Shown: one piece after another, positions 30,918-38,568 of the stretch
Layout: every line of letters begins with the position of its first letter
Numbering within the stretch: the stretch's first letter is position 1
Assembly (NCBI GenBank): GCA_034439575.1
Contig: JAWXAQ010000008.1
Coordinates: forward strand, 128,001-192,000
Reading direction: 5' to 3'
DNA: 64,000 bases
Source: Leptospira sp.
GTDB lineage: Bacteria; Spirochaetota; Leptospiria; Leptospirales; Leptospiraceae
Position numbers and translations under genes: made by a program
The notes under the pieces: generated by a model
Seen by the model: the letters and a program-made list of their open reading frames with translations, nothing else
Database searches by the model: none
What the model was told of the DNA's origin: nothing

Positions 30918-33900
30918 TCAACCATCTAACTGAATTTTTTTATTCTTTTTCTTCGCTGGTAACTTTTCCTTTTTATCAGTTTTTCTTCGATTATAGTTTT
31001 GATTCTCTTCATCACTTTTTTCATCTATCAATTCATCAAAAGCATTTTCATTCACTTCAAAGAAACGAGTTATATTTTGTGAAGGCGCAGAATTTGGATT
31101 ATAGAATTTTCCTTCTACTTTTCTTTCACCTACAACGAGTAGATAAAGAGAAGGTAAAATTGTTAATACTAGTAACATCGCTGAGAATAATCCACCAACG
31201 ATAACAGTTGCGAGTGGTCTTTGAATATCTGAACCAACTCCTGTCCCTAAAGTGGCAGGTATCAGACCAAGTAATGCGAGTAACATGGTCATTAGCATCG
31301 GTCTCAGCTGAATTACTGCCGCTTTACTCACGGCTTTTTTTGTAGATAAATTTGGTTCTTCAATGAGAAGGTGATTCGTTCTAGATACGAATAGTACACC
31401 TGACATAGTCGCAATACCAAAGAGTGAAATAAATCCTACGCCACCTGATACATTGAAGTAATAACCTCGGAGTAGAAGTGCATAGATTCCACCTATCAAT
31501 GAAAGAGGTATACAAGCTAAGGCAACATATACGTATTGCAAATTTCGGTATAACATGTACAATACACCGAAGATAATTAATATCGTAATGGGAATGACTA
31601 ATGCTAATTTTTTCCCAACTCGAGATAAGTTTTCGTATTGGCCACCAAATTTAATTTCATAACCTTCAGGAAGTTTGATTTTCTTTTTAACTTCTTTTTG
31701 GAGTTCAGCTACGAATCCACCTTGATCCCTGCCTCTGATGTTTGTTCTAACAGTGACTACACGTCTTCCTTCTTGACGAAAAATCATTGTTGGTCCGTCT
31801 ATTAAACTGATTTCGGCCAATTCGGATAGAGGGATGCGTTCTCCTTTCGGTGAGATAATTGGCATGTTTTCAATCGCTTGTTTTGAAGCTCTATAATCTT
31901 TTGAGAATCGCACAACAATTCCAAACCTAGCGGGCGTTTTGGGAGGAATATCGGATGGTCCTTCATATAGAGTACTTACTCGTTGCATACCGATGGCAGC
32001 TTCAATCATTTGTTGGATATCGATCACATTGATTCCAAATCTCGCCGCTGCTTCTCTATTAATTTTTATGGTCAATTGTGGGCTTTCGTTTTCTTGTTCG
32101 ATCCCATACTCACTGGCACCCTTCATTTCTTTTACAATGTCTAATATTTCTGTGCCAATACCTCGCATAACACGTAGATCGTTGCCAGAAACGAATACGG
32201 CCAAGTCAGCAATGGTTCCCATGATGGCTTCCGATAGGTTGTCCATGATGGGTTGAGAAAAACTGATCCTAGCTCCAGGTAAGGTAGCCTCTAAATCATT
32301 TTTCATTCGGAGGAGTAATTCTTGTTTGGTAATTTTTTCTTGCCAATCATTATAGTCTTTTAGTCCTATTAGAACTTCTAGTCTGTTTGGTGGAAGTGGG
32401 TCAGTACCATCATCATTTCGACCTAACTGAGATAATACGACATTTACCTGCTCGTTTTTGTAAATAATTTGCCTGATTTTTGGCATAAATTTTCTTGCTT
32501 CAGGAAGTGAAATTCCTACAGGAAAGAAAATACGGATATTGAATCCACCCTCATCCATTTCAGGTAAAAATTCTGTTCCCAATGCATACATTCCAATGGC
32601 TAACAAAGCGAATACGATACTAAATGTGGTTTTGACAATGACTCTAGATCTTTCTACTATGTATTCGATAAGGATTTCATATTTTTTCTCTAACCAATGG
32701 TAGAATGGATTATGCCATTCAATGGGTCCCGGATTAGTCGATTCAAAATACTTTCTATAAATTATCGACATCAGCACAGGAATTACAGTCATAGCAAAAA
32801 TTAGTGCACCTAATATGGCAAAGGAGATTGTGAATGCCATAGGCTTGAAGAGTCTTCCTTCAATTCGTTCAAAGGAAAAAATGGGAAGATATGCTAAAAT
32901 GATAATGAGAATCGAAAATAAAATTTCAGTTCCGACTTCAGCTGATGCATCACGCGTAAAGGAGATGATCCCTTTCTGTTTATCAGCGGGACTTGCATCT
33001 CTGTACCTTCTCATGATGTTTTCAACCATGATCACAGCACCATCTACGATGATCCCAAAGTCGATGGCACCTAATGATAGTAAACTGGCTGGTATGCCCG
33101 TTAGGTTCATTAATAAAAAGGCAAAGAGCATGGCAAATGGAATCGTAGCGACAACTACTAGGGATGCTCGAACACTTCCAATAAAGAAAATCAATACAAG
33201 ACTGACAACGACAACGCCTTCTACTAAGGTCTTACCAATTGTTCTGAGTGTATAATTTACTAAGTCTGTCCTATCGTAAGTATTTCTAATTTGCACATCT
33301 TTAGGAAGGTAGTTTTCATTTATCTCTTGGACTTTATCACGTATCCGCACTCCCATTTCATTTGGATCGCCCCATCGTCGCATGGCAACCAAACCTTGCA
33401 CAGACGAATCTACATCCAATAATCCATCGATATCATTTTGAACCGTATAACCAAGAACTCCACTGGGGATAGGGTGGGACACTTCGACAGTACCTAAGTC
33501 TCGAATGAAAACGGGAACACCATTTACTGTTTTTACAACGATGTCTTCGATATGTTTTGGATCTCGGATAGCACCAAGGGAACGGATTGGAAATCCTTGT
33601 TCCCCTTGTAAAAGTAAGTTACCACCAGTGTTTAAGTTGTTTTCTTGAATGGCTGTGATCACATCGCGAATTGTCAATTTATAACGAATCAATTTATCTG
33701 GTGAAGTCACAACATGGTATTGTTTAGGAAGTCCACCAAAGGTGACTACATCGGCTATGCCTGGAATTTGTAACATCTTTGGCATAACAATCCAGTCTTG
33801 GATCGTACGTAATTCCATAGATGTATGATTAGCTTTTGATTCTAATACATATCTGTAAATTTCACCGACTGGTGAACTCATAGGACCAAGAGAAGGATGT

Positions 33901-34268
33901 ACATCTTCTGGCAAGTCCGCATCAGCAACTCTTTCCATTAGACGCATCCGAGCAAAATAGTCATCCGTTCCATCTTGAAATACGAATTGAAATACTACTA
34001 ATCCATTGATAGTTCGTGATCGTCTAACCGCAACATTTGGAATAGCATTTAATACTCGTTCAATTGGTAATGTGACTCTTTCTTCGACTTCAACTGCTGC
34101 TTTACCTGGAAATTTTGCAATAAGACGTACTTGGGTATCTGCAATATCAGAATATGCCTCTTTTCTAATATCAATCCATGCCCATGTTCCGAACAGTATT
34201 GATATTGCTGCAGCACATAATGTATAAATTCGATATTGGAGGGCCTTTTCTATAAAATCTTTGATCAT
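30918..34268 (-). CDS. CusA/CzcA-family (HME) RND efflux permease
   Basis: [18 protein letters not shown] proton-relay motif, [35 protein letters not shown]. Confidence 0.93.
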
Positions 34269-35005
34269 TGGTTTGACCTCGTATCAAATAAATACCCCAT
34301 TTGGAGTAATAACTGTGGATTGCGGTAATCGCCTTGGCCGATCCCTCCGCCTAACTGAATAAAAAAGTTGCCGAGTAGCAAATCATAAGTCAAGCCTAGA
34401 TATTGTTGCTTTAAGTAAACTTTTTGTGTATCACGACTCTGATATTCAAATAGTAAGGCTGCTGTTGGATCGGTTTCTGCAATATAAGAGCGGATCAACA
34501 AATCTTCGTAAGTTGGATTTCTGTTTTGATATCCTGGAAAATCAAATCCGGTCGGATAAGAATTTTGACCCCCGCGTCCCACTTCCGGTGAGTAAGGATC
34601 CACTTGATAAGCACCTGCGACTAAGGAAACACTATGGGTGATGACAGGTGTTTTCCAAAAAGTATAACCCAAATCAATCTGTCCACCATACCAATGAGGC
34701 CGCCATCTACCGCCTGACGCACGTATAACGAAGTCATTAAAATAATAACCTAAGTTCAAATTGATGCTTGCAGGCGATCCGATTGATGCCCCATACACAA
34801 AGAAATTTGTCGTTTTTGGAAGTTTCTTTGCCTTTAATGATTCTTCATTTATTTTTTCATCATCTGAAACAGCATTTTTTTTATCAGGATTCCATTCTGG
34901 TTGAATATCCTTTCCTTCTTTATCTTTCGGATAAGGAGATTCAGCACCTAAGTATGTGAAGCTGAAAATTAGGGAAATTAAAATTAAAAAACGGAATGTT
35001 TTCAT
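34265..35005 (-). CDS. Exported hypothetical protein, probable small beta-barrel, inside the RND operon
   Basis: Signal peptide and amphipathic strands ([23 protein letters not shown]). ATG 35005 lies 1 nt after the adaptor stop; ATGA overlap with the permease. Confidence 0.7.
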
Positions 35006-35006
35006 T

Positions 35007-36014
35007 TTAAAAACCAAAACTCAAGCCTTTCATAAGGATGGAGCCCTCAACTACAACTTTTTCTCCGATTCTTAATCCATCAATGATATTGACCTTTTCT
35101 TTCGTAGAAACACCTAACACAACTTCACGGCGATGAAAGTTTAAAGGTGTCTCTTCCACAAAGACATAGTTTTTTCCTTCTACAGTGACTATTGAGGAAT
35201 AAGGTAAAACTACAGAATCATTTTTGGTTTCTTCTGGAAACTTAACGGTACCAAACATCCCAGGTTTTAGTCTATAACCAGTATTTGTGATCGCTATTCT
35301 CATTTTTGCGGTTCTAGTTAATGGGTCAACGTTGTCTCCAACGGCTTCTGCCATCCCGATGAAATCCTCATCAGGAAAGGAAGCAAATACAACTTTTACT
35401 TTTTTTCCTCGTTTAAGGCTTGTCATCTGAGATTCAGGAATATCTGAGATGACCCATGATTTGTTCATTCCACCACCGGCAAGTTCATTTGGATTCAAAC
35501 CTTGTGCACGAAGTTTACCCTCGAATTCTGCAAGTTCTGCAGAATCATTGCCAAGCTCTGTTTCTACCTCTACTAAATCTTTCTCTGTTGCCACACGATG
35601 CTTAAACATATCTTGGATCCGATTCATGTTTTTTCTAGATCGATGTACTTTGTTTTTAGAATGCACATAACCTACATAAAGATCATTTAATTCTGCTGAT
35701 TCAAAAAGTATGATTCTTGTTCCACTACTAACAGAGGGAGACGCTGATGCAATGATTCGTGCAGGGGCTTCTAAACTTACGAATTCTCCACCACCACCGA
35801 TTACTGCTGATTTCACAATTTCTAAACCGGGGCTATTCGGTTTGAATTCGATGCGAAGTCCATTCTCATGTGCTACAGCTTTTTCTGGATGATGCGCTAC
35901 TTTTTTGGGAGATCTAGTGAGAGCGTAAATGGTAATTGATAGTATAATAATTGTTAATGAGGCAATTAATATAATCAATGATCGTTTATTCAGAGATTTA
36001 ATGGGATTTTTCAT
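35007..36014 (-). CDS. RND periplasmic adaptor (CzcB/CusB-like)
   Basis: N-terminal TM anchor, [34 protein letters not shown]. Confidence 0.9.
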
Positions 36015-37435
36015 TTCAGTTCCTCAGTTTTTGGTTGTGGATTTGTTTTTGAATTCGTTGGTAAAAAGATTCCGTAACCAACAGAGTAATTTACATTTTC
36101 AATAGCTTCCATTCGATCAGTTTGGAGTTTGAGCATTTCTACTACGCTCGTTCTATAAGTTTCAAAAAAGTCAGCAAACTCAAGTATGGTGATGTATTTT
36201 TTTTCGTAACTCATGATCATATCGAGTGATAAATTTGCATAATCTTTAAGATATGTATCTATAAATCTGCGATATAGTGCGTCCTTTACTCTTGCCGATT
36301 GAAACGCGATCGCTACTTCATTTTCTACTTCCAAAATTCGATTCTTTAATTCTTGTTTGCGCACAAGAATGGCTTTTTCGGCGGCTTGGATATTACCTTG
36401 ATTTCTATCAAAGAGAGGTACATTCAATTGAGCCGTGACCCCCCAATAATTTTGAAAGGCCGTTCCACCTCTGTTATACGTAGGTCCAAATGCAATGTCT
36501 GGAATCGCATTTGCATGTTGTAATTCTAAATTAGCTTCTTCATATTTGAGCGTTTGTAATGCTACTTTTAAATCAGGTCTGTAATCTCGTGCCTTTGCAA
36601 CGAGTTCTTCCAACTTTGCTTGATTAGGTTGGATCTGATCAAGTGTTGGTTCTTCCACTGCAGGGAAGAAGGCTACTTTCGGTTCTCTGTAACGATCATC
36701 ATTTAACAGAACCTTCAAATCAGATTCTTTTTCATAAACTTTAATGCTCATATCTTCTCTTTCTTTTTTTAGAAAGAAGAGGAGGGCTCTCAAACGAAGT
36801 AATTCCGCCTGCAAAATCGCCCTTCGTTTATAGGCTAGTTCTGAGGAAGATACTGTTTTTTCTATGGAGGCAATACTTTGGTCATAAAACACGAGAGCTT
36901 TGCGATAAAAATAGATAGTATAATAAGTGCGCCTAAGTTTAGTTAATAAGGCGCGTGCTAAATCAAAAAATTCTTGTTCACTGATTTTAGCATTTAATTC
37001 GGCGACCCGAACTCGTTTATCAATTTTTCCACCTAACAAAAATACTTGTTGGATTTGAACTACAGATTGGCCTGACCTTGTAGTATCAAAATACCTTTGT
37101 GTTGGTTCAGCAAAAATACTTTGATCGATAAAAATGTTTGGATTTGCGTATAGACCCGCTTGCATCACACCTGCTTTTTTAGCATCGATTTGAAACTTAG
37201 CGGCAATCAGAAGCAAATTGTTCTGCCAAAGCAATGTTTCTGCCGTTTCAATATCAATCTTTACATCCTTTCGTATGTCTTCTGGATAAAGTTCAGAACC
37301 AAAGGATGTCGGCGATTCATTTGAAAGCTGTCTGTCCAATGAGTTAACTGCTCTCTCACCTGGAGATTCTGATTGGCTTGTGAGATAAGCCGTCGGAAGC
37401 AGAATCAAGGATATGATCATTCTTTTAAAATTCAT
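36011..37435 (-). CDS. TolC-family outer membrane channel (CzcC-like)
   Basis: [31 protein letters not shown] motifs. Confidence 0.9.
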
Positions 37436-37476
37436 CGTAAAGCCTGTGTTAAGTGTAAATATGTGATGTTAGACAT
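37432..37476 (-). CDS. Putative 14-aa leader peptide [14 protein letters not shown], translationally coupled to the TolC gene
   Basis: Strong SD AAGGAGG just upstream; its TGA overlaps the TolC ATG (ATGA). Confidence 0.45.
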
Positions 37477-37589
37477 CGGACCCTCCTTGTCGCGAAGCAA
37501 GATAACAATAAGGTAAGGTCAAGATATGATAAGGTTCTATATTCTAGAATTTATTATCAAAACTTTAGTTTTAACTTATTGTTTTGAAG

Positions 37590-37964
37590 CTATGTAAGGT
37601 TAGGTGGGGGTAAATTTAGTAATAGAAAGGAAAGTAAAAAGGTATGAGAACGATCGGATCTTAGCGAAAAGTGTGATGAAATAAATCCAAAATGAAAATG
37701 ATTTTCGCTAAAACCATCATAAACCAAATCCAAATAGTCACAGCGATTGCGCACAAAATTGGCAACCGTCTCTGAATCAAGATACTCAACTGCTTCTACG
37801 ACATCTTTAGTTTTATGATTATTTTTAGTATGGACTTTATTTGCTGTGGTAGAAGGTAAAAAAATCGAATCAAAACCGCCATCTTGTTCAGTCGGCAGTA
37901 GAATGAATGTTGTCAAAATGACAATCAGTAGATTCTGAATGATTTTTCTCAACATTTCCTCCAT
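37590..37964 (-). CDS. Small exported/membrane protein ending LNLPPPNLT (candidate regulatory uORF)
   Basis: N-terminal hydrophobic segment, His-containing C-terminal third, terminal LPPP; lies upstream of the efflux operon. Confidence 0.65.
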   Translation of the reverse strand: MEEMLRKIIQNLLIVILTTFILLPTEQDGGFDSIFLPSTTANKVHTKNNHKTKDVVEAVEYLDSETVANFVRNRCDYLDLVYDGFSENHFHFGFISSHFSLRSDRSHTFLLSFLLLNLPPPNLT

Positions 37965-38087
37965 GATCTTTTTGACGTATTAGCAAGCAATAATCTTTCT
38001 AAATAAAGGAAATAAGCTAATTTCATTTAGCGGTATGTACTAAAATCATTGCACATAATGTTTACTTAATTGAGGCAAAAAGGAGAC

Positions 38088-38115
38088 CATCTTTGCATAT
38101 AATAATGCAAAGATG
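38088..38115. promoter_or_regulatory. 11-bp perfect inverted repeat (operator or hairpin)
   Basis: CATCTTTGCAT-ataata-ATGCAAAGATG. Confidence 0.45.
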
Positions 38116-38164
38116 ATCACAAGGATGTTTGGCAAATGAGAAACCGCAGAATGTGAAATAAATA

Positions 38165-38208
38165 TAAAAACAACCTGTGTTCTAAACCATTTCGATTTAG
38201 AACACAGG
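38165..38208 (-). terminator. Rho-independent terminator/attenuator after the first LPPP ORF
   Basis: 13-bp stem CCTGTGTTCTAAA / TTTAGAACACAGG (38174-38208), followed on the minus strand by TTGTTTTT. Confidence 0.7.
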
Positions 38209-38226
38209 ATAAAAAGGGAGAGAGGT

Positions 38227-38568
38227 TTAAACGGGAGGGGGTAAACTCAAATATGAGTCTTGTAAAATATAAGAAAACGCGGAGTTGTTTTGAAAAATAG
38301 AAGTTAGGTGATGATTTTTGAAATCCAAATACTCGGAAATTTCACGAGCCTTGTTTTTATCATCCGAATCTTTGTCTTTTGATTCTTCTTGCTCAAATGT
38401 GCCATGAATTGTGACCGAAGATTCACTGACTAAGGTTCTTTTTTGTCCGACTCTATTTCCTTGGGAGCCTTTGAGCCGAACGGTCAACTTATCATTGCTG
38501 AGAAATGCGAAAGCAAGGCATAGCGATAGCACTGAAATCCCGAATGCTTTAACTATTTTCTTCCACAT
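38227..38568 (-). CDS. Small exported protein ending YLSLPPPV (candidate regulatory uORF)
   Basis: MWKKIVKAFGISVLSLCLAFAF signal/TM segment, acidic linker, terminal LPPP. ATG 38568 preferred over 38607. Confidence 0.6.
   Translation of the reverse strand: MWKKIVKAFGISVLSLCLAFAFLSNDKLTVRLKGSQGNRVGQKRTLVSESSVTIHGTFEQEESKDKDSDDKNKAREISEYLDFKNHHLTSIFQNNSAFSYILQDSYLSLPPPV

Follow-up and report, generated by a model that had tools for sequence, protein, structure and literature searches.

Small exported ORFs ending in LPPP upstream of a heavy-metal efflux operon in Leptospira: candidate non-thiol analogues of CutF-type nascent-chain sensors

Leader peptides of the SecM, MifM, VemP and RAPP type are exported or targeted to the membrane, and their C-terminal arrest of translation is released by the force of translocation. 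They lie upstream of Sec or YidC genes and carry RAG-P/RAPP or idiosyncratic arrest motifs. A different arrangement is found in Salmonella MgtP and E. coli TnaC, where the ribosome pauses at a proline late in a short ORF and thereby controls transcriptional read-through just downstream. These are short cytoplasmic peptides that work with defined alternative RNA structures or Rho sites. For transmembrane sensing by a stalled nascent chain there is, to our knowledge, a single worked example, CutF with copper, together with the DUF2946 family that surrounds it. For CutF of Rhodobacter capsulatus, a member of that family, the published accounts state, in the sections cited here, that changing PPP to PAP abolishes regulation and that the stall depends on EF-P (Ozturk et al., bioRxiv 10.1101/2022.11.11.516240 and 10.1101/2025.02.05.636593). 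CruR of Bordetella pertussis, a DUF2946 uORF, is described in the cited part of its report (mBio 2022) as metal-responsive, with a Pro-rich C-terminus, an intergenic region of 162 nt and an outcome at the level of transcription termination.

The locus considered in this study lies on the minus strand of a stretch of Leptospira sp. DNA of 64,000 nucleotides, called the window. According to the original prediction, it carries two ORFs with an N-terminal hydrophobic segment, ending in LPPP, 5' of genes for an outer-membrane efflux protein (OEP), a periplasmic adaptor (MFP) and an RND pump. Both were found as described (ORFs A and B):

38227-38568, minus strand: ORF A, 113 aa from MWKK (the longest frame extends to 38607), ending in YLSLPPPV and the stop
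38233-38241, minus strand: PPP codons of ORF A, CCC CCT CCC, then one Val codon and TAA (38227-38229)
37590-37964, minus strand: ORF B, 124 aa, with a more likely start at the ATG at 37955 (121 aa), ending in LLNLPPPNLT and the stop
37602-37610, minus strand: PPP codons of ORF B, CCC CCA CCT, then three codons and TAG
37432-37476, minus strand: 14-codon mini-ORF with a strong SD, AAGGAGGG, at 37481-37488; its TGA overlaps the OEP start (ATGA)
36011-37435, minus strand: OEP, CzcC/TolC-like (PF02321 at 2.8e-28)
35007-36014, minus strand: periplasmic adaptor, CzcB/CusB-like MFP (TIGR01730, TIGR00999)
34265-35017, minus strand: 250-aa ORF inside the operon, of no assigned family and without a Pfam or NCBIfam match
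30918-34268, minus strand: CusA/CzcA-family heavy-metal RND pump (TIGR00914 at 4.6e-259)

The order 3' of ORFs A and B, all on the same strand, is OEP, MFP, 250-aa ORF and CzcA. At locus L107, an ORF of 269 aa occupies the position equivalent to that of the 250-aa ORF. Mini-ORFs like the one at 37432-37476 occur elsewhere in the genus in 4 members only. EF-P is encoded in the genome.

Judging from their orthologues, ORFs A and B are real, conserved genes, and neither has a match in Pfam or NCBIfam. ORF A is present in 40 of the 41 genomes of the genus. The ORF B family extends to 91 of 111 Leptospiraceae genomes, as judged by HMM matches of which the main ones have no internal stops. The A-B tandem order is kept in 27 of the 30 genus loci; outside the genus, ORF A was not found except for one weak match, and B-type ORFs stand alone 5' of the OEP gene. 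Among the loci fetched from the genus, A-type ORFs end in L[SN]LPPPV (29 of 30) and B-type ORFs in LN[LI]PPP plus 2-4 amino acids (28 of 30). Four further, more divergent orthologues of ORF A retain Y[IL]SLPPPV before the stop. One divergent orthologue (G033) has 11 additional residues beyond PPP, and natural variants with 11-12 residues between PPP and the stop number two.

The terminal LPPP of ORFs A and B is far above chance. In this genome, PPP falls within the last 8 residues in only 2 of the 2,720 ORFs that reach 200 aa. A genome-wide search, proposed beforehand as a check, found PPP among the last 12 residues of 34 ORFs, and the three of these that have [SN]LPPP all lie 5' of heavy-metal RND operons. 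The same genome contains a third paralogue, C12, 5' of a second heavy-metal RND gene. The A, B and C12 families have in common only an N-terminal hydrophobic segment and a C-terminal module of about 17 residues, LL..L.[SN][LI]PPP, after which come 1-4 residues and the stop. A and B had been called otherwise dissimilar, and so they are: when they are compared by hhalign, the signal region alone aligns (probability 62%). With the C12 family, B aligns over 18 C-terminal residues (probability 70%, E 4e-5) and A over 17 residues (probability 41%). Many matches from genus g3 to the B-family profile cover profile positions 102-123 only. The distance from PPP to the stop is 1 residue in 29 of 29 A sequences, 2-4 in 39 of 39 B sequences and 3 in 18 of 18 of the C12 family.

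Within each protein, the spacer that precedes the module is the least conserved part. Mean column identity is 0.94 in the module versus 0.35 in the spacer for B, 0.86 versus 0.57 for A, and 0.77 versus 0.51 for the C12 family. The conservation of LPPP, also proposed as a check, was borne out: orthologues keep the motif unchanged and diverge elsewhere, and 14 combinations of PPP codons occur among 27 orthologues of ORF B. Since the codons vary synonymously, selection acts on the peptide, not on the RNA. The ORF upstream of C15 was considered as another Pro-motif member and rejected, since its 'SPPS' occurs in only 1 of 17 relatives and is not conserved. Our best reading places A and B in a group of small exported leader ORFs confined to the Leptospiraceae and represented in this genome by three or more families. 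An LPPP ORF is the immediate 5' neighbour of OEP/MFP/RND genes in the window, at C12 and at 11 of the 17 other Leptospiraceae loci inspected for context (a set of 16 plus L032). LPPP ORFs of the L094 type and that of L097 do not adjoin efflux genes, and at two loci secA is upstream, not downstream.

ORF A consists of an N-terminal hydrophobic export segment, an EE.S..KD.. motif, a variable 28-aa spacer and the C-terminal module. ORF B has an N-terminal TM/signal helix, LPTEQDG, R69xRxDxLD76, a variable 30-aa spacer and a C-module ending in LLSFLLLNLPPPNLT and the stop. The conserved internal motifs are RxRxDFLD, EE.S..KD and VDDRF..ELEETTR. Attention had been drawn to His residues in the distal part of both ORFs; these turned out not to be conserved, no His being invariant in A1, A2 or A3. 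Nor is any Cys or His invariant in A1, A3 or A5; conservation there falls on R, K, D and E, so no metal ligand is apparent. AF2 predicts no fold for ORF B, giving helices only (pLDDT 62.9, pTM 0.22), with helix 2-19 at pLDDT 81-86.

The spacing between motif and PPP behaves like a ruler. In ORF A, K66 is 44 residues from the first Pro in all 29 of 29 sequences; in ORF B, the distance from D73 is 43 residues in 38 of 39. The motif is not at a constant distance from the N-terminus (64-71 in A, 64-82 in B). The ruler of the C12 family is 54 residues, not 43. A DUF2946-like ORF with RPPR, located in the same genome 5' of a third RND operon, has 43 residues from Cys77 to Pro in 8 of 8 sequences. 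In CutF, the CxxxC is about 41-45 residues before PPP, a value that combines the residue numbers of 10.1101/2025.02.05.636593 with the mature length of 90 aa in 10.1101/2022.11.11.516240, in the sections of those reports cited here. A spacer free in sequence and strictly fixed in length would be unusual for a docking protein and is what one would expect of a ruler.

Sequence and analogy together suggest that ORFs A and B are new, non-thiol analogues of CutF-type nascent-chain sensors, with stalling predicted; the probability of this reading may be put at about 0.5. The C-terminal cassette would be a ribosome-arrest module, and the ribosome would pause on reaching PPP, at an EF-P-sensitive step. 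At that pause, the charged motif, 43-44 residues behind, would have just exited the ribosome and entered the translocon. Its fate there (binding of metal by carboxylates, or translocation force) would set the duration of the pause, and the duration would set the expression of the heavy-metal RND genes just downstream. This last step, proposed for B and the C12 paralogue, is modelled on the control of cutO by CutF. The conservation pattern, the ruler, the gene context and the lack of a fold are observed; we infer the stall, the signal sensed and the effect in cis. Several observations weigh against this reading: the two variants with 11-12 residues after PPP, the 54-residue ruler of the C12 family, the LPPP ORFs that do not adjoin efflux genes, the missing conserved Cys or His, and, as described below, the terminators 3' of ORF A and the failure of masking to raise RBS accessibility.

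An arrest peptide like CutF and the DUF2946 proteins had been the core of the original prediction. The part that stands is the conservation of LPPP and the 43-44-residue ruler, along with other features of the CutF type that are present in A and B: the hydrophobic N-terminus, PPP 1-4 residues from the stop, and the position immediately 5' of metal-homeostasis genes. One part that fell away is kinship with DUF2946 itself. The model PF11162 gives no match at E<=1 for ORF A or B, none at E<=10 among 29 A and 28 B family members, and none at E<=1 across the genome translated in six frames; when the B family is compared by hhalign with the genome's DUF2946-like family, the probability is 0.6%. A language-model search with a B homologue (P0056) returned a DUF2946/CzcI-labelled cluster as its nearest named neighbour (0.93) and unnamed Bacteroidota clusters at 0.95, all of them leads only. 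The absence of conserved Cys or His also weighs against that kinship.

Perhaps the PPP codons could serve as an anti-SD that shields the next RBS. In MFE folds, CCUCC does pair with a downstream GGAGG in 5 of 5 mini-ORF loci and in several loci of the C12 family. However, any PPP is complementary to any SD, so this pairing was counted as no evidence. When the footprint of a stalled ribosome was masked in partition-function calculations, mean RBS accessibility went from 0.41 to 0.40 in the C12 family (30 loci), from 0.39 to 0.35 in the B mini-ORF type (5 loci) and from 0.51 to 0.52 in the main B clade (22 loci), and with no consistent gain the idea was dropped. The spacer of the C12 family shows a hairpin in each single-sequence fold, variable and not alignable across loci. 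In-silico folding showed no stall-responsive RNA switch.

The region between ORFs A and B has features of its own:

38216-38226, minus strand: pyrimidine box directly 3' of the ORF A stop, ACCTCTCTCCC here and CTCCTCTCT invariant in relatives
38164-38208, minus strand: T1, an intrinsic-terminator hairpin (CCTGTG..CACAGG) with a T run, beginning 17-19 nt after the ORF A stop
38128-38144, minus strand: invariant 17-nt non-coding block, GTTTCTCATTTGCCAAA, between T1 and T2
38075-38118, minus strand: T2, a second terminator-like hairpin with a T run, about 108 nt after the ORF A stop

T1 was detected by scan in 25 of 27 loci and has 10 pairs, 3 of them with compensatory changes; T2 has 11 pairs, 4 with compensatory changes. 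In this genome T2 is a perfect 14-bp palindrome and so could also be an operator. No convincing complement of the 17-nt block was seen elsewhere in the genome, and an Rfam search found nothing, its sole row being mir-5595 at 20.7 bits against a gathering score of 100 (E 0.55). That the pyrimidine box might be a C-rich site for Rho loading or recycling is only a guess. T1 and T2 follow ORF A, and T1 would be out of reach for a ribosome held at PPP, so there is no obvious target in cis. The action of ORF A may be limited to read-through or Rho access, or it may be in trans.

In one study, two RNA libraries gave short Logan contigs over ORF A (38312-38514 and 38387-38537), and one gave a contig over ORF B (37610-37760). 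These contigs show neither transcription nor termination, and the same holds for the fact that 38059-38119 is uncovered and the A-B spacer unbridged. Over the OEP gene there is one 32-nt piece only (36962-36993), with both ends loose. Two other runs with contigs are probably DNA.

The main rival explanation, which we consider somewhat unlikely, is that A, B and the C12 paralogue are small signal-anchored or periplasmic envelope proteins acting in trans, as CzcI-like regulators, chaperones or RND accessory subunits. The hydrophobic-LPPP tail would then work at the level of the protein, for example as a degradation tag, a docking peptide or a membrane-interacting helix cap, with metal or partner proteins bound by the acidic motifs. 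Since its conserved pair of terminators follows it, ORF A would fit a stand-alone gene with a trans-acting product, and a promoter region of its own is probable for ORF B. A function in a mature protein would account equally well for the conserved charged motifs. The signal of B ends in LPC in the pathogen-clade genus, and some members are named 'lipoprotein' in the sources. A family of Cys-rich small ORFs 5' of another RND operon lacks a conserved Pro motif, so such ORFs need not all have one; CzcI of Cupriavidus, too, is described without a Pro motif in the part of the literature cited here, and is suggested there to be a metal-sensing regulator. The RNA-library contigs over the interiors of A and B would also suit such proteins, though transcription is not thereby shown. 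Against this rival, no fold is predicted, the spacer is fixed in length and free in sequence, the PPP cassette beside the stop is the sole element common to three otherwise unrelated families, and the spacing agrees with that of the DUF2946-like ORF and CutF.

The CutF-like reading can also be carried further. In a quite unlikely extension, the arrest module would be a portable cassette, carried by at least five unrelated exported peptides with the sensor motif 43-44 or 54 residues back. These would be the first non-thiol, carboxylate-based, translocation-coupled sensors, reporting Zn/Co/Cd or the state of the envelope to czc-type efflux, and ORF A (a second copy, in one genus) would gate the two tandem terminators, so that control would be layered, both transcriptional and translational.

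The original prediction had gone on to stack the two ORFs in a two-tier cascade on one transcript, where a stall in A controls B and a stall in B controls the efflux genes. The conserved tandem order speaks for it, and the invariant pyrimidine box and 17-nt block hint at an RNA that is regulated, not merely terminal. Yet two strong, conserved intrinsic terminators with compensatory changes stand between A and B. T1 starts too far downstream for a ribosome at either PPP or the stop to reach it, and no antiterminator pairing was seen, by eye or in folds. Moreover, B-type ORFs do without A before the OEP gene in other genera, and no contig bridges the spacer. The cascade is therefore very unlikely. 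Still less credible, and scarcely worth retaining, is the notion of a long leader in which the frames are open by chance and the conserved elements are RNA: the region does contain conserved non-coding blocks and hairpins, but the frames are open in all orthologues, amino acids are conserved over synonymous change, and the main HMM matches, from 91 of 111 genomes, are free of internal stops.

How, then, do A and B compare with the systems described at the outset? With the SecM, MifM, VemP and RAPP type they share a ruler from an export element to the arrest point. They differ from SecM, MifM, VemP and ApdA in their polyproline motif and in having OEP, MFP and RND genes downstream, not a gene for protein localisation. 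Attenuation of the MgtP or TnaC type is the only way in which ORF A with T1 and T2 could be a regulator in cis; neither alternative RNA structures nor Rho sites of that type were found at A or B. The termination mode of CruR may have a counterpart in ORF A and its terminators, but CruR, as portrayed in the cited part of its report, is independent of a signal sequence, works via Rho, is based on Cys, controls a TonB-dependent transporter, and has its stalling relieved, not induced. CzcI of Cupriavidus metallidurans is likewise a small exported ORF 5' of czcCBA, but the C-terminal Pro motif is said to be absent in the portion of the literature cited here.

A second, unrelated family of such sensors, if true, would make the principle general and modular, not the quirk of one family. 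Roughly a hundred Leptospira 'hypothetical proteins', some of them from pathogenic species, would gain names and a testable role, and the 43-44-residue ruler amounts to a testable geometric prediction of where the path through ribosome and translocon reads the signal. CutF remains the closest relative in design. In the sections of its reports cited here, it is a small ORF, about 118 aa long, that has a Sec signal, a conserved sensor motif preceding the C-terminal PPP by about 41-45 residues, few residues thereafter (2 in CutF) and a metal-detoxification gene immediately 3', all as in A and B. Where CutF has CxxxC, A and B have acidic or basic motifs and no conserved Cys or His. They also differ from it in the long conserved hydrophobic stretch before PPP, in a czc-type RND system downstream instead of a multicopper oxidase, in intergenic regions of 65-260 nt where an SD-shielding hairpin is not demonstrated, and in their spirochaete host. 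The A/B family thus sets itself apart from CutF as unrelated in sequence, cysteine-free, spirochaetal and placed before RND pumps of the Zn/Co/Cd type.

Two small ORFs, A and B, lie upstream of a heavy-metal efflux operon encoding an outer-membrane efflux protein (OEP), a periplasmic adaptor (MFP), a protein of no known family and an RND pump. In window positions, the features are:

38227-38568 (longest frame to 38607), minus strand: ORF A, 113 aa from MWKK, C-terminus YLSLPPPV-stop
38128-38144, minus strand: invariant 17-nt block GTTTCTCATTTGCCAAA, between conserved terminators T1 and T2
37590-37964, minus strand: ORF B, 124 aa, or 121 aa with ATG at 37955, C-terminus LLSFLLLNLPPPNLT-stop
37432-37476, minus strand: mini-ORF of 14 codons with a strong SD (AAGGAGGG), its TGA overlapping the OEP start (ATGA)
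36011-37435, minus strand: OEP/TolC gene (PF02321, 2.8e-28)
35007-36014, minus strand: CzcB/CusB-type adaptor
34265-35017, minus strand: 250-aa ORF of no known family, between the adaptor and RND genes and overlapping each by a few bases
30918-34268, minus strand: CusA/CzcA RND pump (TIGR00914, 4.6e-259)

The original prediction described A and B as two ORFs ending in LPPP, 5' of TolC-MFP-RND genes on the same strand, and this holds both here and in relatives. It also called them otherwise dissimilar, and hhalign of A against B indeed pairs the signal alone (probability 62%). The His residues that it highlighted are not conserved. Searches of Pfam and NCBIfam gave no match for either ORF. (The source genome has 4.1 Mb and 35.7% G+C. 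At L107, a homologous locus, a 269-aa ORF occupies the position of the 250-aa ORF.)

A homologue of ORF A is present in 40 of the 41 genomes of the genus. The LPPP ends, whose conservation had been proposed as a check, are kept: 29 of 30 loci fetched from the genus carry an A-type ORF ending in L[SN]LPPPV-stop, and 28 of 30 carry a B-type ORF ending in LN[LI]PPP plus 2-4 residues. The four most divergent A orthologues retain Y[IL]SLPPPV-stop; in one relative genome (G033), 11 further residues follow PPP. The B-family profile finds matches in 91 of the 111 Leptospiraceae genomes sampled (36/37, 22/22, 23/24 and 6/8 in genera g1, g2, g3 and g5, and a single genome each in g13, g4 and g6) but only 20 at E<=0.001 among 1.84 billion representative proteins, and in a larger collection each of the 60 matches is either a "hypothetical protein" from Leptospira or has no name. 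The B family is therefore lineage-restricted and uncharacterised. Among the matches listed from the literature on arrest peptides, polyproline, EF-P and uORFs, none mentions Leptospira. Since the PPP codons of B occur in 14 synonymous combinations among 27 orthologues, the codon pattern indicates that selection acts on the peptide. PPP per se is not rare in the genome (79 sites in 2,720 long ORFs, about 65 expected); it falls within the last 8 residues in only 2 of the 2,720.

A scan of all ORFs in the genome found 34 with PPP in the last 12 residues, of which only three have the form [SN]LPPP: A, B and an ORF on contig C12. Such a genome-wide search had been suggested, and all three ORFs proved to lie upstream of heavy-metal RND systems. 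The relevant features on other contigs of the source genome (G000), with positions in fetched loci in brackets, are:

C12:121078-121404: C12 ORF, 108 aa, ending HYISLPPPSLV-stop, 66 nt 5' of the second heavy-metal RND gene
G000:C12:124725-125348 (L033:5726-6346): inorganic pyrophosphatase gene inside the second RND operon, whose order is RND, PPase, OEP, MFP
G000:C36:54624-55004 (L110:6125-6505), minus strand: DUF2946-like exported ORF, 126 aa, 5' of the third heavy-metal OEP-MFP-RND operon
G000:C15:239269-239700 (L111:6270-6701), minus strand: Cys-rich exported ORF, 143 aa, 5' of another OEP-MFP-RND operon

The tail [LF][LI][SNY]LPPPxL[AV]-stop is found in 30 of 30 C12 orthologues. Other subfamilies with the same tail occur at 16 further Leptospiraceae loci and at L032; at 11 of these 17 the LPPP ORF lies directly 5' of a 438-476-aa ORF and an adaptor-sized ORF, or of an adaptor, and Pfam identified the OEP in both loci tested (L102 and L105). 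One LPPP subfamily lies away from efflux genes, with a phosphoglucose isomerase gene 5' and an unknown 299-aa ORF 3' (five loci: L094-L096, L103, L104), and at L097 the LPPP ORF precedes two Proton_antipo_M (Mrp/Nuo-like) membrane proteins. At L105 and L107, which represent two genera, the B-type ORF and OEP gene come just 3' of secA and of a lipoprotein gene (~160 aa), probably synteny only.

The A, B and C12 families show no relationship outside their ends. Against the C12 family, hhalign aligns the last 18 residues of B (probability 70%, E 4e-5) and the last 17 of A (41%), and nothing else. Each family has the same four parts: an N-terminal hydrophobic segment (in ORF B, a helix modelled by AF2 at residues 2-19, pLDDT 81-86), a charged motif that differs from family to family (A has E61..K66-D67, B has R69-x-R71-x-D73-F-L-D76 and C12 has VDDRFV.PLEDL...Y.S.ELEETTR), a weakly conserved spacer and a C-terminal cassette. 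Mean column identity is 0.94 in the cassette and 0.35 in the spacer for B, 0.86 and 0.57 for A, and 0.77 and 0.51 for C12. The spacer is free in sequence and fixed in length. From K66 of A to the first Pro is 44 residues in 29 of 29 sequences, while K66 lies 64-71 residues from the N-terminus; from D73 of B it is 43 in 38 of 39 (44 in the remaining one), while D73 lies 64-82 from the N-terminus. R49 of the C12 family precedes the Pro by 54 residues in 17 of 18.

The C36 ORF has a DHxDHVCxSCPC motif and ends in GYFRPPR plus 4 residues; UniRef labels one homologue DUF2946, and Pfam gives no DUF2946 match. In all 8 sequences of its family, the last Cys (Cys77) lies 43 residues ahead of the first Pro. 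Members of the C15 family share CPK, PCH and CQC motifs and, in 16 of 17, the end KTI[KR]LLI-stop; they have no Pro motif. At a distance of some 40-45 residues from the site of synthesis, a segment is clear of the ribosomal tunnel and engages the SecYEG channel. According to two preprints, CutF, the copper-sensing DUF2946-family leader peptide of Rhodobacter capsulatus, carries C41xxxC45 (mature numbering) and P109EPEGPPPRL118 and has a mature part of 90 residues, from which we calculate 41-45 residues between Cys motif and PPP (10.1101/2025.02.05.636593; 10.1101/2022.11.11.516240). By these distances, three unrelated families of one genome (A, B and C36) and CutF all have a conserved polar motif ~41-45 residues before a terminal Pro run.

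The reading best supported by these comparisons, to which we give a probability of about one half, is that the A, B and C12 ORFs encode leader peptides of the CutF type. Guided by the export signal, the nascent chain would reach the translocon, and PPP, together with the conserved hydrophobic stretch before it, would make the ribosome pause. The charged motif at its fixed distance would sense something inside the translocon or past it, and the length of the pause would set efflux-gene expression. Every mechanistic step for the Leptospira ORFs we infer, our demonstration being confined to the comparative signature. In CutF, the same sources state, regulation disappears when PPP is changed to PAP, and loss of EF-P has the effect of copper (10.1101/2022.11.11.516240; 10.1101/2025.02.05.636593). 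EF-P is present in the source genome. The main rival, which we consider less likely, is that the ORFs encode a small trans-acting envelope protein like CzcI; the conserved internal motifs, a lipobox-like LPC in one genus and the terminators of ORF A speak for it. Such a protein fits poorly with a ruler of fixed length, with a stop-proximal cassette common to the families and with the lack of a predicted fold: AlphaFold, given the 39-sequence alignment, found none for ORF B (pLDDT 62.9, pTM 0.22), with residues 33-50 disordered and long helices of low confidence.

Downstream of ORF A come an invariant pyrimidine box, the terminator hairpin T1, the invariant 17-nt block, and a second hairpin, T2, with its T run. 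T1 begins 17-19 nt past the stop codon (detected in 25 of 27 loci by a crude scan), and RNAalifold, run on 24 of 26 distinct sequences (L002 and L021 omitted), predicts both hairpins, with compensatory changes at 7 of the 21 pairs. Together with T2, the 17-nt block might make up a short sRNA-like unit, or the block might be a protein-binding site; a search of the genome for a complementary target found none. Since T1 would be out of reach for a ribosome paused at PPP, and even for one at the stop codon, and no antiterminator was found in the folds, ORF A looks like its own transcription unit. It was also found in this genus alone (one weak outside match turned out to be a B-type ORF). The stacked cascade from A to B that had been envisaged is for these reasons, T1 and T2 being conserved between the two, unsupported.

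As to how a CutF-like leader might act on the genes behind it, most relatives have ~100 nt between B and OEP, with two recurrent hairpins and a U-rich stretch after the second. In the source genome and four relatives (L002, L008, L011 and L021, out of 26 other genus loci), a mini-ORF of 13-15 codons takes the place of this layout, and the OEP gene behind it lacks an SD of its own. Each relative of the C12 ORF has a hairpin spanning the stop codon, then a second, sequence-variable hairpin ahead of the RND start. At L042-L063, an invariant non-coding CGTTGCATGTA, containing ATG and an immediate stop (ATG TAG or ATG TAA), lies ~8-20 nt past the C12-family stop. Release of the downstream RBS by a stalled ribosome could not be shown by folding: with its footprint masked, mean predicted RBS accessibility went from 0.41 to 0.40 in the C12 family (30 loci), from 0.39 to 0.35 in the B mini-ORF type (5 loci) and from 0.51 to 0.52 in the B main clade (22 loci).

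We propose that A/B-type ORFs work like DUF2946/CutF peptides, yet by the tests available they are not members. Of the likeness originally drawn, the export segment and terminal PPP stand. The Leptospira LPPP ORFs lack a Cys/His motif, and no DUF2946 profile match was found for the ORFs, for their family members, in the genome or by hhalign of the B family against the DUF2946-like family. Nor do they belong to the Sec/YidC monitoring substrates. We rate as new the sequence family, the candidate arrest cassette and the putative non-thiol sensor motif, although some members may figure among SSN clusters of CutF-like proteins. The phylum is new for such ORFs, their setting is 5' of czc-type pumps, and the family offers a ruler that can be measured.
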